Assembly: GCA_902772915.1 (NCBI GenBank)
Contig: CACYCE010000008.1
Location: 1 to 56,006, forward strand
Direction: 5' to 3'
Origin: an uncultured Erysipelotrichaceae bacterium
GTDB lineage: Bacteria > Bacillota_I > Bacilli_A > RFN20 > CAG-288
DNA: 56,006 nucleotides
The position numbers and the translations under genes are program-made. Under the pieces are notes generated by a model. It saw nothing but the letters and a program-made list of their open reading frames with translations, made no database searches and was not told where the DNA came from. This document shows positions 2,592-53,759 of this stretch, in pieces (the stretch's first letter is position 1; the number at the start of each line of letters is the position of its first letter).

Positions 2592-2599
2592 TAACGAGT

Positions 2600-2792
2600 A
2601 GCGATGATTAGACAAGTGCAATAGATTATCTTTATTTAAGCGAGCTGAGTATGGTGAAAGTCAGTTAAAGAAACTATAGATGCATATCACTAGGAGCGAA
2701 TATTATTAATTAAGTGCAAAGATTAAAGTTCTTTGAAGTGAGGTGGTACCGCGTTAAAAGCGTCCTCATAAAAGAGAACTTTTTTATTTTTT
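2600..2792 (+). ncRNA. T-box riboswitch (Ile, specifier AUC)
   Basis: Stem I motifs (GCGAG, GGTGAAA), likely specifier ATC at 2686-2688, T-box GGTGGTACCGCG, antiterminator 3' strand CGTCCTCA; lies upstream of ileS. Confidence 0.92.
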
Positions 2793-2807: not shown

Positions 2808-5522
2808 ATGGAACTAAAAAAATCGTTAAACATGTTTAAAGGTGACTTTCAAATGAAAGCTGATTTAGCTATTCACGAACCTGAATATGTTAAAAGATGG
2901 ACGAAAATGGATCTTTACAACAAGATGAGAATTAAAAGGGAAGGTTGTTTAGATTACTACCTTCACGATGGTCCTCCTTATGCTAATGGAGATATTCACT
3001 GCGGTCACGCATTAAATAAAATTGTCAAAGATGCTATTAATAGATATCAAGCTTTAAAAGGTTACCATATTACTTATATTCCTGGGTGGGATACTCACGG
3101 TCTTCCTATAGAAAACGCTTTAACTAAATCTGGAGTTAATAGGAAAGAAATTTCCGTGGCTGATTTTAGAAGACTCTGTATGAAATACGCCTATAAACAA
3201 GTCGATAAGCAAATGGCGCAATTTAAACGTTTAGGAGTCATCGGTGATTTTGATCACCCTTATATCACTTTAACTAAAGATTACGAAGCTGATGAAATTC
3301 ACGTTTTCTCTGAAATGGCTTTGAAAGGTTACATCTATAAGGGATTGAAACCTGTTGCTTGGTCACCTTCTTCAGAATGTGCTTTAGCTGAAGCTGAAAT
3401 TGAATATAAGGATGTTACCGCTAGAACAATCTATGTTAAATTCCAAGTAGAAGATGGGAAAGGTCTTTTAACTAAAGATGACTATTTCGTCATTTGGACT
3501 ACAACTCCTTGGACTATTCCCGCTGATACTTCTATCTGTTTAAATCCTAAGATGATTTACGGTTTGTATGAGACTGAAAAGGGAAGATTAATCTTCTTAG
3601 CGGATTTGAAAGACTCTTTAGTAAAAGAATTCGGCTTAGAAAGATGCGAATTAGTAAAAGAATTTACTGGTAAAGAATTAGAATACATCACTGTTAAGCA
3701 TCCTTTATATGAAAGAACTTCCTTAGTAATTAACGGCGACCACGTTACCGCTGATTCTGGTACTGGTTGTGTTCACACGGCTGGAGGTCACGGTTTAGAT
3801 GACTACAAAGTCTCTACTAAATATGGTTTACCTAATTTATGCCCTGTCGATGATAAAGGATATATGACTAAAGAAGCCGGTGAACAATTAGAAGGTTTAT
3901 TTTACGAAGAAGCTAATGATAAGGTTGTCGATATCTTAAACGAAGGTGGATATATCCTTTCTGAAAAGAAGATTGTTCACTCCTATCCTCACGATTGGAG
4001 AACTCATAAACCTGTTATTTTTAGAGCTACTCCTCAATGGTTCTGTTCAATTGCTAAATTTAGAAATGAAATTTTAGAAGAAATTGAAAAAATCTCCTTC
4101 AATCCTTCATGGGGTAAAGTTCGATTACATAACATGGTAGCTCAAAGAGAAGATTGGTGTATTTCTAGACAGAGAGCTTGGGGTGTACCTATTCCTATTA
4201 TCTACTGCGAAGATGGAACTCCTATTATTGAAAGAGAAGTCTTTGAACATATAGAAAAATTATTTAGAGAATTTGGATCCAATATTTGGTTTGAAAAAGA
4301 AGCTAGTGAATTGCTTCCTGAAGGATATAAGAACGAACATTCTCCTTCTAATAAGTTTACTAAAGAAAAAGATATTATGGATGTGTGGTTCGATTCAGGG
4401 TCTTCTTGGCTATCTTCAGATATCAATAGAAACGCACCTTATCCTGCTGATTTGTATTTTGAGGGAACTGACCAATATAGAGGTTGGTACAATTCTTCTT
4501 TAACTTTAGCGGTTGCTACTGGTCATAAATCTCCATTCAAAGCGATTTTAACTCATGGATTTATCGTTGATCAAAACGGTCAAAAATTCTCTAAATCCTT
4601 AGGAAATGGTATTGCTCCAGAAGATATTTACAATGTTTATGGTGCGGATATTTTAAGATTGTGGGCCGCTTCAATCGATTTCACTACTGCGGAAATTAAG
4701 ATTTCTGAAGATTTAATTAAGACTATTTCTGAATCTTATAGAAAGATTAGAAACACATTTAAATTCATGCTTTCTAACCTCTACGATTCTAGAGAAGATA
4801 AAGTTGATTTATCTAAACCTTATGAATATTCTCACCTCGATGAATTAGTCTTGGCTAAAGAAGCCGATATTATTAGACAAGTTGATGAAAAATTTGCTAA
4901 ACACGATCACATCGGTGCAGTCTCTTTAATTGAGAATTATATGATTAACGATCTATCTTCTTTCTATTTAGATTACGCTAAGGATATCTTGTATTGTGAT
5001 AGTATCGATTCATTAAGAAGAAAAGGTGTTCAACACGTTTTATATACTTTAGTTCACGATTTAGCTATCGTTTTATCTCCTGTACTTTGTTTTACTATGG
5101 AAGAAGTTTACGACCATATGCCTAACAAGAAAGAAGAATCTGTCGCTTTAGAGGATTTCCCTTCTAGAGAAGTTGATGAAAAGAAATTAGCGATGTACAA
5201 CTGTTTCATGGATATTAGATCTAAAGTCTTTAAGAAATTAGAAGAAGAGAGAGCTGATGGCTGTTTAGCTTCTAATACTGAAGCGGTAGTAAATTATTCT
5301 CCTTCTAAAGAAGAAAAAGAAACTTTAGATTACATCGGTGGTGAAATGGTCGCTAAAGCGTTAATTGTTTCTGAATTTAGTTATACTTCCAAGGAATTAG
5401 AAGTCACTAAATCTAACGGCGTTAAATGTGAAAGATGCTGGAATTATGTTACTTCTTATTCTCAAGATGATGAAGGTCACAACATTTGTCCTAGATGTAA
5501 GGAGGTTATTGAAGCAAAATAG
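2808..5522 (+). CDS. ileS: Isoleucine--tRNA ligase (type 1)
   Basis: DGPPYANG, HCGH, GWDTHGLPIE, WTTTPWT, WCISRQR, KFSKS and a C-terminal CERC..CPRC zinc finger. Confidence 0.98.
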   Translation: MELKKSLNMFKGDFQMKADLAIHEPEYVKRWTKMDLYNKMRIKREGCLDYYLHDGPPYANGDIHCGHALNKIVKDAINRYQALKGYHITYIPGWDTHGLPIENALTKSGVNRKEISVADFRRLCMKYAYKQVDKQMAQFKRLGVIGDFDHPYITLTKDYEADEIHVFSEMALKGYIYKGLKPVAWSPSSECALAEAEIEYKDVTARTIYVKFQVEDGKGLLTKDDYFVIWTTTPWTIPADTSICLNPKMIYGLYETEKGRLIFLADLKDSLVKEFGLERCELVKEFTGKELEYITVKHPLYERTSLVINGDHVTADSGTGCVHTAGGHGLDDYKVSTKYGLPNLCPVDDKGYMTKEAGEQLEGLFYEEANDKVVDILNEGGYILSEKKIVHSYPHDWRTHKPVIFRATPQWFCSIAKFRNEILEEIEKISFNPSWGKVRLHNMVAQREDWCISRQRAWGVPIPIIYCEDGTPIIEREVFEHIEKLFREFGSNIWFEKEASELLPEGYKNEHSPSNKFTKEKDIMDVWFDSGSSWLSSDINRNAPYPADLYFEGTDQYRGWYNSSLTLAVATGHKSPFKAILTHGFIVDQNGQKFSKSLGNGIAPEDIYNVYGADILRLWAASIDFTTAEIKISEDLIKTISESYRKIRNTFKFMLSNLYDSREDKVDLSKPYEYSHLDELVLAKEADIIRQVDEKFAKHDHIGAVSLIENYMINDLSSFYLDYAKDILYCDSIDSLRRKGVQHVLYTLVHDLAIVLSPVLCFTMEEVYDHMPNKKEESVALEDFPSREVDEKKLAMYNCFMDIRSKVFKKLEEERADGCLASNTEAVVNYSPSKEEKETLDYIGGEMVAKALIVSEFSYTSKELEVTKSNGVKCERCWNYVTSYSQDDEGHNICPRCKEVIEAK

Positions 5523-20373: not shown

Positions 20374-20445
20374 GAGCAGGTGACGGGAATCGAACCCGCG
20401 TAATCAGCTTGGAAGGCTGAAATTCTACCATTGAACTACACCTGC
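20372..20445 (-). tRNA. tRNA-Gly (TCC)
   Basis: GCAGGTGTAGTTCAATGGTAGAATTTCAGCCTTCCAAGCTGA...GGTTCGATTCCCGTCACCTGCTCCA; cloverleaf with encoded CCA. Confidence 0.97.
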
Positions 20446-20449
20446 TTAG

Positions 20450-20525
20450 TGGCGGATCATACGAGAATCGAACTCGTGATCTTCTCCGTGACAGGGAGAC
20501 ATGTTAACCGCTACACCAATGATCC
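20450..20525 (-). tRNA. tRNA-Asp (GTC)
   Basis: GGATCATTGGTGTAGCGGTTAACATGTCTCCCTGTCACGGAGA...GTTCGATTCTCGTATGATCCGCCA. Confidence 0.97.
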
Positions 20526-36687: not shown

Positions 36688-36764
36688 GGCCCTGTAGCTC
36701 AGCTGGATAGAGCAACAGCCTTCTAAGCTGTGGGCCGAACGTTCGAATCGTTTCAGGGTCACCA
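36688..36764 (+). tRNA. tRNA-Arg (TCT)
   Basis: GGCCCTGTAGCTCAGCTGGATAGAGCAACAGCCTTCTAAGCTGT...GTTCGAATCGTTTCAGGGTCACCA. Confidence 0.97.
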
Positions 36765-49597: not shown

Positions 49598-50938
49598 ATG
49601 ACAAAAAAAGCAATATCTTATGAAGATTTATCTTCATATTCTAAATTCTATTCTTCCGATAAGAGAAGCGCAGTTTTAAGACACGCTTTATCTAAGAGTG
49701 AATTGAACAATGTCATTTCTTCTTTGGATGCTCCTTCTAATTTGAATTTTAATTTTTCAATCGAAGTTAAGACTATGCCTGTTACTAGTCAAAAAAGAAG
49801 CGGGCGCTGCTGGATATTCTCTGCTTGTAATGTCTTAAGAGAATCTATTGCTAAGAAATTAGGTATCAAAGATATGTTCGAGATTTCTCAAAACTACATT
49901 TCATATTATGACAAATTTGAAAAAATTAATTTTGTCATGGAAGGGGTTATCTCTTTGTTAGATGAAGAAATCTCCTCTAGAAAGAACCAATTCTTATTAT
50001 CTTCTGGGGTAGGAGATGGCGGACAGTGGGGAATGTTTGTCGATTTAGTTAAGAAGTACGGAATCGTTCCTAAATCAGTTTTCCCTGAAACCGCGCAATC
50101 TGAAATGACTTTCCCTTCAAATAAGATTATCAATGCATCAATTAGAAAATTCGCTTACGAAGCTAGAAAGATTTATAACGAATCTCACAATATTGATTCT
50201 ATTTATGAATTGAAAGGGGAATATTTACAAAAATTCTATTCTTTATTAACCTCTTGCTTTGGAGTTCCTCCTGCGAAATTCGATTTTGAATATACTGACT
50301 CTCAAGGTAAATATCACATTGAAAAAGATATCACTCCTAAACAATTCTTCGATAAATATGTCGGAGATGAAATCGATGAATATGTCTCTTTAATTAACGC
50401 TCCGACTTCCGATAAAGATTATTATCAAACTTACCAAATTGAGCTATTAGGTAATGTGATAGGAGGTAAAGGAGTCACCCATTTAAATATCCCTATGGAG
50501 AGAATGAAAGAATTAATTATTTCTCAATTGCAAAACGGGGAAATTGTCTGGTTCGGCTCTGATGTTTCTAATTATGGAGATAGAGTTGGTGGAGTCTGGG
50601 ATGATAAAGCCTTAGATTATTCTTCCGCTTTTGATTTAGATGTTAAATTTGATAAATCTGCAATGTTAGATTTCTATCATTCTTCGATGAACCACGCCAT
50701 GGTTATTACTGGAGTAGATATAATCGAAGGTAAACCTACTAGATGGAAGATTGAAAATTCTTGGGGTAGTGAAGCGGGCAACAAAGGTTATTACATTATG
50801 TCCGATTCCTTCTTCGATTTATTCGTCTATCAAGCTGCGATTAAAGAAAAATATCTTTCTGATGATGAAAAGAAAGCCCTCAAAGGTGATTCAATATTGT
50901 TAGCCCCTTGGGATCCTTTCGGAACTTTAGCAGATTAA
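49598..50938 (+). CDS. pepC: Aminopeptidase C (bleomycin hydrolase, C1B family)
   Basis: QKRSGRCW, DGGQW, MNHAM, ENSWG, PWDPFGTLA. Confidence 0.96.
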   Translation: MTKKAISYEDLSSYSKFYSSDKRSAVLRHALSKSELNNVISSLDAPSNLNFNFSIEVKTMPVTSQKRSGRCWIFSACNVLRESIAKKLGIKDMFEISQNYISYYDKFEKINFVMEGVISLLDEEISSRKNQFLLSSGVGDGGQWGMFVDLVKKYGIVPKSVFPETAQSEMTFPSNKIINASIRKFAYEARKIYNESHNIDSIYELKGEYLQKFYSLLTSCFGVPPAKFDFEYTDSQGKYHIEKDITPKQFFDKYVGDEIDEYVSLINAPTSDKDYYQTYQIELLGNVIGGKGVTHLNIPMERMKELIISQLQNGEIVWFGSDVSNYGDRVGGVWDDKALDYSSAFDLDVKFDKSAMLDFYHSSMNHAMVITGVDIIEGKPTRWKIENSWGSEAGNKGYYIMSDSFFDLFVYQAAIKEKYLSDDEKKALKGDSILLAPWDPFGTLAD

Positions 50939-50940
50939 GA

Positions 50941-50969
50941 TTGAAAAATAATTTTATTAAGTGTAATAT
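50941..50969 (+). promoter_or_regulatory. Sigma-A promoter of the valS leader
   Basis: TTGAAA-17 bp-TAATAT. Confidence 0.6.
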
Positions 50970-50974
50970 TTATG

Positions 50975-51168
50975 TATCTTGAGGTGATTAATAGCCTTTT
51001 TTGATAGAGAGTTCCTTCCTAGCTGCAAGAGGAATAAAAAAGAATTGATCTGGTCGCAAGATGAAGTTATTAAACAAATTTATTAAGAGCATAGAGAAAG
51101 TCTATCTATGAAGCAAGGTGGTACCGCGTGGAAGCGTCCTTGTAAAGATAGGCTTTTTTATTGTTTTT
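50975..51168 (+). ncRNA. T-box riboswitch (Val, likely specifier GUC)
   Basis: Stem I base ATCTTG/CAAGAT, AGAGAG and GCTGCAA motifs, GTC at 51053-51055, T-box AAGGTGGTACCGCG, 3' strand CGTCCTTG. Confidence 0.9.
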
Positions 51169-51182
51169 AAGGAGGTAAGAAT

Positions 51183-53759
51183 ATGGAATTAAAGATGGAA
51201 AAAAACTACGATCACTTCAAAGTGGAAGAAGGCAAATTCGATTTTTGGAATGAGTCAGGCTATTTTAAAGCTAACCCTAGTTCTTCTAATAAAGGCTTTT
51301 CGATGATTATTCCTCCTCCTAACGTCACAGGTGTTTTACATATCGGTCACGCTTTAGATGCTACTTTACACGATATCATCGGACGTTATAAAAAATTATC
51401 TGGTTACGATGTTTGTTTTGTTCCTGGAACTGATCACGCCGGTATCGCAACTCAAGCTAGGGTGGAAAAGAATTTACGTGAAAAAGGTATCTCTCGTTAC
51501 GATTTAGGAAGAGAGAAGTTTTTAGAAGAAACTTATAAATGGACTTATCAATCTCAAAAGACTATTCACGAACAGTGGAAAGCTTTAGCCATAGGTATGG
51601 ACTATTCTCGCGAATTCTTCACGATGAATGAGCAAACTAACAAAGCTGTTTTGAAAGTGTTTAAACAACTTTATGATGAAGGTTTGATTTATAAAGGAAG
51701 AAGAATAATTAACTGGGATGTCACTTTACAAACTGCCTTATCTGATATTGAAGTTGAACATGAAGATATCCCTGGTATCTTTTATTATTTCAAATATAGA
51801 TTAGTTGATGATAAAGACAAATATTTTGTCGTTGCTACTACTAGACCTGAAACTATGTTTGGCGATGTCTGCCTAGTTTACAATCCTAAAGATGAAAGAT
51901 TCGCTTCTTTAGAGGGCAAGTACGCTATCAATCCTGCCAATGGAGAAAAGTTACCTTTTATCGCTGATTATTACGTCGATAAAGACTTTGGTACCGGCTT
52001 AATGAAATGTACTCCCGCTCACGATCCTAATGATTTCGCTATCGCTAAACGTCACAATTTAGAAATGCCTATTTGTATGAATTTAGATGGCACTATGAAT
52101 GAATTAGCAGGTGAGTACAAAGGTTTAGATAGATTTATCTGCCGTGATAAATTAGTTGAAAGAATTAAAGAAAACGGCGATTTAGTTAAAGAAGAGAAGA
52201 TTGTTCACTCTGTAGGTCACTCTTCTAGATCTCACACCATAGTAGAACCCACCTTATCTGATCAATGGTATGTAAAGATGGAACCTTTAGCTAAGAAGGT
52301 ACTCGAATTAGAAAAAGGTGAACAGAGAATTAAATATTTCCCTTCCAGATTCGAAAAAGTCTTTTTGAATTGGTTGAAAGACACTCAAGATTGGTGCATC
52401 TCTAGACAATTGTGGTGGGGTCATAGAATCCCTGTTTATACCAATAAGAAAACTGGAGAGGTGGTTTGTTCTATCGAGCAGCTTCCTGAAAGTGAATGGG
52501 AACAAGATAACGATGTCCTCGATACTTGGTTCTCTTCAGGTTTATCCCCTCTAGTTTTAACTAATTGGCCTAATCTCGAGGATCCCTACTTCAAGAAATA
52601 TTTCCCTCTAGATGTCATGATAACCGGTTACGACATCATCTTTTTCTGGGTGGCTAGAATGGCCTTTGATTCTGCGCATTTTACTGGCAAATTACCTTTT
52701 AAAAATGTCTTTATTCACGGTTTAGTTAGAGATGAATTAGGAAGGAAGATGTCTAAGTCTTTAGGTAATGGAGTCGATCCTTTGAAAGTTATTGACGAAT
52801 TTGGGGTAGATTCCTTGCGTTACGCTTTAGCTACTTCGACCACTCCGGGTTTAGATATGTCTTTTGGTACATCTAATATCAAAGAAGCTCACGTCTTTTT
52901 AAATAAGGTGTGGAACGCTTCTAGATTCGTCTTGATGTATTTCCCTGAAAATTACCAACCTAAGGATGTCTCTGAATTGAAGTTGTCTTTCATTGAGGAA
53001 TATCTCTATTCTCATTTAAATGAAACAATTAAAAATGTCACTAAGAATATGGAGAAATACGAAGTTGGACAAGCTGGTCAATATCTCTATTCTTTCATTT
53101 ATGACATTTACTGTTCTAATTACATCGAACAAGCCAAGATTGATTTAAATGGAAATGATGAAAATAGAAAAGAAGTTGTACTTTCAGTTTTGTATGACGT
53201 CTTAAAGAAAGTATTAATTATGCTTTTTCCTTTCTCTCCTTGTATCTCTGAAGAAATCTATTCTTTCTTACCTATGCATAAGAAATCTCTCTACGAAGAA
53301 TCTTATCCTTTACCTGTAAAGAAATCTTTAAAGAAATCTGAATTAGGAGAAGAATTAGTCAACATTGTTAAATACATCAGACAATTCAAAGCTGAAAATA
53401 AGATTAGTCCTTCTAGCAAAATCAACTTATTTGTCAAAGGGGAAGAGAAAGAAATAAATTTATTGAAACCTTATTTAATTAAATTAGGTAATATCGATAA
53501 ATTTAATATTACTTCTTCTGAGGATGAAAGCTTCAGATTCTTCTCTGAATTTGGCGTAAAGTGCGAAAAAGAAGAAGTGGCAGTTTCTCCGGAAGTTATC
53601 AAGAAGAGAATTGAAGAATTAGAAGGAGAATTAAATAGAAGTAAGAAGATGTTATCTAATCCTAACTTTTTAGCTAAAGCTCCTAAAGAGAAGATTGAAC
53701 AAGAAAAGCAAAAATTTGCTAAATATCAAGCTGAATACGATAAATACACTAAAAAATAG
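51183..53759 (+). CDS. valS: Valine--tRNA ligase
   Basis: PPPNVTG.LHIGHA, DHAGIATQ, TTRPET, WCISRQLWWGH, KMSKS and C-terminal coiled coil. Confidence 0.98.
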   Translation: MELKMEKNYDHFKVEEGKFDFWNESGYFKANPSSSNKGFSMIIPPPNVTGVLHIGHALDATLHDIIGRYKKLSGYDVCFVPGTDHAGIATQARVEKNLREKGISRYDLGREKFLEETYKWTYQSQKTIHEQWKALAIGMDYSREFFTMNEQTNKAVLKVFKQLYDEGLIYKGRRIINWDVTLQTALSDIEVEHEDIPGIFYYFKYRLVDDKDKYFVVATTRPETMFGDVCLVYNPKDERFASLEGKYAINPANGEKLPFIADYYVDKDFGTGLMKCTPAHDPNDFAIAKRHNLEMPICMNLDGTMNELAGEYKGLDRFICRDKLVERIKENGDLVKEEKIVHSVGHSSRSHTIVEPTLSDQWYVKMEPLAKKVLELEKGEQRIKYFPSRFEKVFLNWLKDTQDWCISRQLWWGHRIPVYTNKKTGEVVCSIEQLPESEWEQDNDVLDTWFSSGLSPLVLTNWPNLEDPYFKKYFPLDVMITGYDIIFFWVARMAFDSAHFTGKLPFKNVFIHGLVRDELGRKMSKSLGNGVDPLKVIDEFGVDSLRYALATSTTPGLDMSFGTSNIKEAHVFLNKVWNASRFVLMYFPENYQPKDVSELKLSFIEEYLYSHLNETIKNVTKNMEKYEVGQAGQYLYSFIYDIYCSNYIEQAKIDLNGNDENRKEVVLSVLYDVLKKVLIMLFPFSPCISEEIYSFLPMHKKSLYEESYPLPVKKSLKKSELGEELVNIVKYIRQFKAENKISPSSKINLFVKGEEKEINLLKPYLIKLGNIDKFNITSSEDESFRFFSEFGVKCEKEEVAVSPEVIKKRIEELEGELNRSKKMLSNPNFLAKAPKEKIEQEKQKFAKYQAEYDKYTKK

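Follow-up and report, generated by a model that had tools for sequence, protein, structure and literature searches.

The leader of valS in an uncultured Erysipelotrichaceae bacterium is probably a transcriptional T-box for tRNA-Val(GAC) with a non-canonical expression platform, in which Stem III is the exchanged helix and the antiterminator is present in both states. We analyzed a window of 56,006 nucleotides, comprising positions 1-56,006 of contig CACYCE010000008.1 from the host assembly GCA_902772915.1 (G000; 1.27 Mb in 58 contigs). As far as sequence can tell, the arrangement is a real and new variant of the T-box expression platform, for which we infer the mechanism. Anatomy, energetics and conservation point to termination at the U-tract, to its prevention by tRNA and to an action through Stem III.

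The features of the valS leader and of a second T-box upstream of ileS are summarized in Table 1. The RF00230 score of the valS leader remained below the curated gathering score of 93, and 5 of the 6 T-boxes of G000 fell under this cutoff. Because both T-boxes of the window score below gathering, a default Rfam scan of the window yielded only three tRNAs. These tRNA genes, two of them adjacent, are located at 20375-20525 (-) and 36688-36761 (+) and were found with RF00005 at 66-72 bits. The sub-threshold score aside, the valS leader carries the hallmarks of a T-box. It shares with canonical T-boxes (Bacillus subtilis tyrS and glyQS type; RF00230) the Stem I specifier, the order RRRxG-Stem III-AA (here AAGAG, Stem III at 51090-51110, AA and then A1/A2), the 7-nt UGGNACC bulge between A1 and A2, a G-U pair at the base of A2 (G51126-U51137), a matching tRNA and a U-tract terminator in front of an aminoacyl-tRNA synthetase gene. 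The GUC specifier agrees with the valS gene downstream and with the tRNA-Val(GAC) encoded in the same genome (C11:10459-10534). Bulge nucleotides 51119-51122 (UGGU) are complementary to the 3' end of this tRNA, and since it ends in ACCA, the bulge U pairs with A73. A GUU triplet at 51066-68 was ruled out as specifier, since both the Rfam alignment and the conserved GTCG of the relatives place the codon GUC further upstream. An open reading frame of 446 aa (49598-50938, +) lies directly 5' of the leader and gave no NCBIfam match at E <= 1e-20. In a metatranscriptome contig of a related strain, which covers 50855-51477, a T>C exchange at 51137 would convert the G-U wobble at the A2 base into G-C. 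The contig spans the terminator; assembled contigs cannot show 3' ends, strand or termination frequency.

Table 1. Features of the valS and ileS T-box leaders in the analyzed window
Feature	Position	Strand	Details
Promoter-like TTGAAA-17 nt-TAATAT	50941..50969	+	consensus scan, weak (2 sites versus 1.4 expected)
valS T-box leader, Stem I to antiterminator end	50963..51144	+	Rfam RF00230, 56 bits, E 1.1e-11, full model 1-219
Specifier codon GUC (Val)	51053..51055	+	Rfam alignment position; GTCG conserved there in valS leaders of relatives
Purine string AAGAG (RRRxG motif), 5' of Stem III	51085..51089	+	sequence; motif as defined in the accessible part of PMC7583486
Stem III, CATAGA 51090-51095 / 9-nt loop / TCTATG 51105-51110	51090..51110	+	-5.1 kcal/mol; MFE before the terminator strand
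Antiterminator, A1 GCAAGG 51113-18/CCTTGT 51138-43 and A2 GCG 51126-28/CGT 51135-37	51113..51143	+	
T-box bulge UGGUACC (DNA TGGTACC) between A1 and A2	51119..51125	+	
Putative terminator (outer helix), 5' strand AAAGTCTATCT	51097..51107	+	Stem III loop plus first 3 nt of Stem III 3' strand; to 51094 in MFE
Putative terminator (outer helix), 3' strand AGATAGGCTTT	51146..51156	+	to 51159 in MFE; duplex -13.2 kcal/mol
U-tract TTTTTTATTGTTTTT	51154..51168	+	T6 at 51154-59, T5 at 51164-68
Shine-Dalgarno AAGGAGG	51169..51175	+	sequence
valS, valine--tRNA ligase, 858 aa	51183..53759	+	NCBIfam NF004349, 1001.8 bits (cut-off 704)
ileS T-box leader	2595..2770	+	RF00230, 75.8 bits; below gathering
ileS Stem III	2717-22/2730-35	+	within the leader at 2595-2770
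ileS outer helix	2725-2734/2773-2782	+	10 bp, one G-U; T6 from 2780
ileS ORF	2808-5522	+	TIGR00392, 889 bits

Canonical T-boxes of the transcriptional class build the 5' half of the terminator from the A1 and A2 3' strands, and antiterminator and terminator are therefore mutually exclusive; in their accessible parts, both reviews give this competition of A1/A2 with the terminator as the single logic of the transcriptional class (PMC7583486, PMC10907184). In the valS leader, in contrast, the A1/A2 3' strands do not provide the 5' strand of the terminator. This strand consists of the loop and the 3' strand of Stem III, and the antiterminator survives inside the predicted terminator. Re-reading of the sequence confirmed every coordinate that the preliminary description had given for Stem III, antiterminator and outer helix, and the 11-bp helix with one G-U pair between 51097-51107 and 51146-51156 was verified from the pair list. 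The claimed absence of a canonical strand was found as well, with no complement of 51130-51143 in front of the U-tract, and a consensus scan of 50800-51300 detected no ordinary short-loop terminator. Within the leader (50963-51143) the best partner of the strand preceding the U-tract was 51097-51108 with -13.2 kcal/mol. Among 5,000 shuffles of the 13 nt at 51144-51156, 3 paired equally well with 51085-51112, and the same was found for 5 of 5,000 random 13-mers from the window. The minimum free energy (MFE) structure of 51085-51170 (-31.5 kcal/mol, z -5.2) was not reached in stability by any of 200 shuffles. It consists of the outer helix, extended to 14 bp by U-tract pairs, wrapped around the intact antiterminator. 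As in intrinsic terminators, this stem of 11-14 bp runs into T6 at 51154-59. It does not close the usual short loop of 3-8 nt. Instead it surrounds 38 nt that fold into the antiterminator hairpin, a difference from ordinary terminators that was counted against the proposed mechanism.

The alternative structures of the valS leader were evaluated on 51085-51160. Stem III only yielded -5.1 kcal/mol and the antiterminator only -6.9 kcal/mol, and both together, representing the ON state, yielded -12.0 kcal/mol. The OFF state, with outer helix and antiterminator, reached -18.2 kcal/mol for the 11-bp and -21.7 kcal/mol for the 14-bp version of the helix. These calculated energies fit a default-off switch. 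Predicted MFE structures before the last strand contained Stem III and antiterminator, and those after it outer helix and antiterminator, for the valS leaders of G000, G029 and G164 and the pheS leader of G157 (genomes described below).

According to the proposed mechanism, Stem III would fold first during transcription, followed by the antiterminator hairpin, which would bring the two outer strands together. The emerging strand 51146-51156 would then extend the base of A1 outwards and displace the 5' strand of Stem III. The long irregular hairpin formed in this way (outer helix, internal loop, A1, bulge and A2) would end at the U-tract, and transcription would stop. Uncharged tRNA-Val would pair its ACCA end with the UGGU bulge, and the downstream strand would invade Stem III unless the uncharged tRNA had docked Stem III. 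The switching helix would be Stem III, with the antiterminator hairpin present in the ON as well as in the OFF state. For T-boxes in general, the accessible part of one review states that the antiterminator shows no appreciable tRNA binding without Stem III (PMC7583486).

The ileS leader of the window had been reported with the same geometry, and its 10-bp outer helix indeed occupies the equivalent place. For a comparison across the host family, the IleS N-terminus was searched in 61 family genomes and the best 30 loci were read. A T-box was carried by 13 of these 30 loci, from four genera, and the selection was independent of the terminator feature. The outer helix was part of the MFE structure in 12 of the 13 leaders, with G029 as exception. 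In an alignment guided by a covariance model, which is fitted to the tested structure and favours it in covariation counts, 7 of the 10 outer-helix pairs changed on both sides among the 13 leaders, and all 22 modelled pairs reached 91.5% paired cells and a covariation score of 0.516, compared to at most 0.135 for slid partners and with 0 of 500 shuffles attaining it. The model was seeded from one ileS leader entered twice and used to align the remaining leaders; MAFFT alignments shifted the register of the downstream strand and were not used for pair counts. With positions numbered from the Stem III 3' end, position -6 was occupied by U-A in 4, G-C in 7 and G-U in 1 leader, position -7 by G-C in 2, A-U in 6, U-A in 1 and G-U in 1, and position -8 by A-U in 5, U-A in 1 and G-U in 1. 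In an alignment-free test, the Stem III 3' region of each of the 13 ileS leaders and of the valS leaders of G000 and G029 was paired with its own and with foreign strands preceding the U-tract. Cognate strands gave -7.9 and non-cognate strands -5.3 kcal/mol, and 0 of 20,000 permutations was as low, with kin among the leaders not being independent.

It is extremely improbable that the two strands match by coincidence, in an AT-rich leader that has lost a canonical terminator by decay. The sequence is indeed of low complexity and rich in AT, and canonical valS leaders occur in the same genus. Nevertheless, we regard chance as excluded because of the shuffles and the covariation. The same geometry is found in the ileS leader of the window and, with compensatory changes, in 12 of the 13 family ileS leaders, always followed by a U-tract. 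The earlier claim of a recurring, non-chance pairing stands on these leaders and on the valS leaders of G125, G029 and G164.

Among order-level valS loci, 25 of 30 read carried a T-box, and inspection by eye recognized a Stem III-type terminator in 2 of these 25, those of the window and of G029. For the family, 15 valS leaders were obtained from all T-boxes of 16 genomes and assigned by an automatic MFE classifier. Ten were canonical, one of them with doubt, 4 belonged to the Stem III-region type (G000, G125, G029, G130) and 1 paired the strand before the U-tract with the bulge and the A2 5' strand (G002). Six of the canonical leaders are from the same genus as G000 (G053, G096, G010, G127, G128, G129), and the others are from G023, G121, G075 and, as the doubtful case, G047 (L253). 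The leader of G125, by IleS (80%) among the two nearest relatives, has a similar Stem III (CATAG/CTATG) and a different outer helix (AGTTCCG/CGGAATT). The G029 leader repeats its Stem III 5' strand CGTAAGT exactly in the downstream strand; the competing helices are nearly identical in sequence, and this was counted against the mechanism. The leader of G164, a member of another family, forms the helix at the same place via a TATAGAT copy. The outer helices of G125, G029 and G164 share their location with the window and are unrelated in sequence. As most orthologous valS leaders are canonical, the valS design appears young and untried by long conservation; by these sequence comparisons it is patchy and of more than one origin.

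Several further valS and ileS leaders differed in other respects. No obvious U-tract terminator follows the valS T-boxes of G047 (L034/L253) and G108 (L055). A CCTCCGT in the 3' side of the G047 antiterminator is complementary to ACGGAGG at the ribosome-binding site, and control may be translational by sequestering of the Shine-Dalgarno (SD) sequence. Loci L035, L038, L045, L046 and L057 for valS and L100 and L104-L116 for ileS, from genus g6 and several other genera of the family and order, have no upstream T-box, and some of these genes directly follow another gene.

All 74 T-boxes found at E <= 1e-3 in the 16 family genomes were assigned with the MFE-based classifier. A Stem III-region terminator was called for 30 (ileS 12, alaS 12, valS 4, serS 2), a canonical terminator for 25 (serS 10, valS 10 including L073, ABC transporter 4, one lipoprotein gene) and a pairing with the T-box 5' side for 15 (thrS 14, valS 1); 1 had an independent downstream hairpin and 3 remained without call. 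Sorted by gene, 12 of 13 ileS and 12 of 12 alaS leaders were of the Stem III-region type, 14 of 14 thrS leaders of the bulge type, and serS and ABC-transporter leaders canonical for the most part. For serS, neither of the two Stem III-region calls (G000 and G125) is unequivocal, with L002 having a 5-bp canonical alternative and the MFE structure of L231 being without the helix. In the alaS leaders, which gained Rfam scores of just 30-47 bits, GTGCTTTT precedes the U-run and as a rule has its partner in the purine string and the 5' strand of Stem III (GAGCAC), as in L006 (G000:C34:1840-1964 and downstream) and 11 further leaders. Here the exchange is predicted on the other Stem III strand than in ileS, and the alaS leader of G002 shows covariation of the two strands, with AAGTGCTT/AAGGCGCTT. 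In 3 of the 12 alaS leaders the classifier assigned the 5' strand to other positions, and one of these three, from G075 (L260), was weak or canonical-like by eye. The thrS leaders carry GGTGC or CCAC ahead of the U-run, and this strand pairs with the T-box bulge and the A1 5' strand, and not with the antiterminator 3' strand (L003 at G000:C20:64059-64266 and downstream, L083, L072, L067, L229, L234; 14 in all). Judged by these predicted pairings, the thrS terminator is a second non-canonical wiring.

Terminator types sort by gene, a pattern that speaks for inheritance and selection of these structures. A T-box subclass spanning the whole lineage, as proposed in the preliminary description, was not borne out, since 10 of the 15 family valS leaders, six of them from the same genus, are canonical and since the mostly canonical serS and ABC-transporter leaders and the bulge-type thrS leaders contradict it too. 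The counter-evidence which that description itself had named was found in part: canonical terminators do occur elsewhere in the lineage and the valS orthologues mostly lack the outer helix, but ileS conserves it. On the comparative evidence, the architecture is tied to the gene (ileS, alaS) within one family and arose repeatedly in valS, and is not a property of the whole lineage. We regard a more far-reaching reading as evenly balanced between right and wrong. It takes the antiterminator as a constitutive scaffold, with the charge signal passing solely via docking of Stem III and purine string, and assumes four per-gene wirings in one family, with valS switching. The terminator 5' strand would be taken from the 3' side of Stem III for ileS, from its 5' side and the purine string for alaS and from the bulge for thrS, and would be the canonical one for most serS and ABC-transporter leaders.

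The antiterminator is compatible with the outer helix in every MFE structure, and therefore secondary structure alone forces no role for Stem III. The outer helix might be a real terminator that the tRNA blocks directly, for instance by steric hindrance of the A1 extension through the bound acceptor arm or the A1 stack, or a leaky constitutive attenuator, and Stem III would then not be the transducer. The valS leader of G130 suggests such a direct block, as its outer 5' strand is located 5' of the purine string and clear of Stem III. We nevertheless consider this explanation unlikely. Overlap of the 5' strand with the Stem III loop or 3' strand is consistently seen in 12 of the 13 ileS leaders and in the valS leaders of G000, G125, G029 and G164. 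In alaS the overlap is as a rule with the purine string and the 5' strand of Stem III, apart from the 3 of 12 leaders for which the classifier placed it elsewhere. This overlap would otherwise be unnecessary and for that reason counts against a direct block. Moreover, Stem III itself is backed by differing complementary sequences across the valS leaders.

Translational control was considered as a further explanation. The stretch 51134-51142, which comprises the 3' strands of A2 and A1, would sequester the SD region at 51168-51176 in a manner comparable to actinobacterial ileS T-boxes, and the outer helix would be incidental. The preliminary description had named SD pairing as a possible explanation of the regulation. 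Such a pairing is possible in the valS leader, with -8.7 to -10.1 kcal/mol for the duplex of antiterminator 3' strand and SD region, but it is no stronger than in canonical leaders. Mean SD complementarity amounted to -5.9 kcal/mol for 27 Stem III-type, -6.5 kcal/mol for 24 canonical and -4.4 kcal/mol for 15 bulge-type leaders, and to just -3.5 kcal/mol for the Stem III-type valS leader of G029. It is generic across the leader types because CU-rich A1 3' strands face GGAGG. The two family valS leaders mentioned above (L034 of G047 and L055 of G108) may be translational and lend this explanation some weight. However, the sequestrator helix would have to close a loop of approximately 25 nt, and the covarying outer helix, with a U-tract right after it in every such leader, would be left unexplained. 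Taken as the main mode of control for the valS leader, SD sequestration is very unlikely, and the transcriptional reading with an exchanged Stem III is retained.

Outside the family, the Stem III-type terminator is rare in the genomes sampled by sequence. For the order, ten genomes from six other families were used, and 58 of 87 matches had loci. The calls comprised 48 canonical terminators, 8 with the T-box 5' side (at least 3 of them artefacts), 1 Stem III-region and 1 none. The lone Stem III-region call concerns a 5-bp helix far upstream and is probably an artefact, leaving 0-1 of 58 T-boxes with this type. For the class, 24 genomes gave 107 T-boxes among the matches listed (27 of 30 loci and 80 of 122 further rows, with 75 beyond the list). 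The classifier sorted these 107 into 90 canonical, 9 T-box 5' side and 7 Stem III-region terminators, with 1 other. Of the 7 Stem III-region calls, 4 hold by eye, corresponding to 4 of the 107 listed T-boxes: the valS leader of G164, the leaders of pheS and of an ileS-type gene in G157, and the leuS leader of G158, where the helix is an extension of A1. Genomes below 1 Mb supplied 3 of these 4 cases. The other Stem III-region calls did not hold up, L149 and L195 being canonical by eye and L206 equivocal. Several bulge-type calls of the classifier with a U-run 5-7 nt after A1 were artefacts and were corrected by eye.

Known systems resemble the valS leader in some respects. In metabolite riboswitches with P1 exchange, the terminator uses one strand of an aptamer helix that the ligand stabilises, and strand invasion is prevented by the ligand. 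The shared helix of the valS leader differs in that it would be an accessory hairpin, predicted to touch the ligand via the flanking purines only. In T-boxes the role in strand exchange is assigned to A1/A2 and not to Stem III. Class II translational T-boxes such as Mycobacterium tuberculosis ileS have, like the valS leader, a discriminator of Stem III and an antiterminator-like hairpin. According to the accessible part of one review, this hairpin is pre-formed and the charged tRNA dislodges the linker/Stem III region (PMC10907184). Some anti-SD complementarity in the valS leader is a further common trait. However, translational T-boxes act by occluding the ribosome-binding site and lack a terminator with U-tract, whereas the valS leader has a hairpin and a U-tract 15 nt before the SD sequence. 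The staphylococcal glyS T-box likewise departs from the usual terminator/antiterminator domain in a lineage-specific way, through its stem Sa. This stem is inserted into antiterminator and terminator, and as the abstracts describe it, the choice of the strand that forms the terminator is not re-wired (PMC9177973, PMC4574755). The literature searched, which in part was accessible in sections and did not extend to older comparative papers and the TBDB terminator tables, contained no account of a terminator formed with Stem III.

Leaders of this kind will be mis-annotated by pipelines that presuppose a canonical terminator or apply the Rfam gathering score. If the more far-reaching reading with four wirings is true, the T-box decision would be readable from any strand of the discriminator. 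Leaders with an exchanged Stem III would also offer compact switches of approximately 75 nt for engineering. A structural proposal of 2019 regards Stem III and its purines as a latch that reports the charge of the tRNA; leaders that keep A1/A2 in the off state would constitute an independent test of this proposal. The gene-by-gene distribution of terminator types within the host family represents a natural series for the evolutionary rewiring of riboswitch expression platforms.
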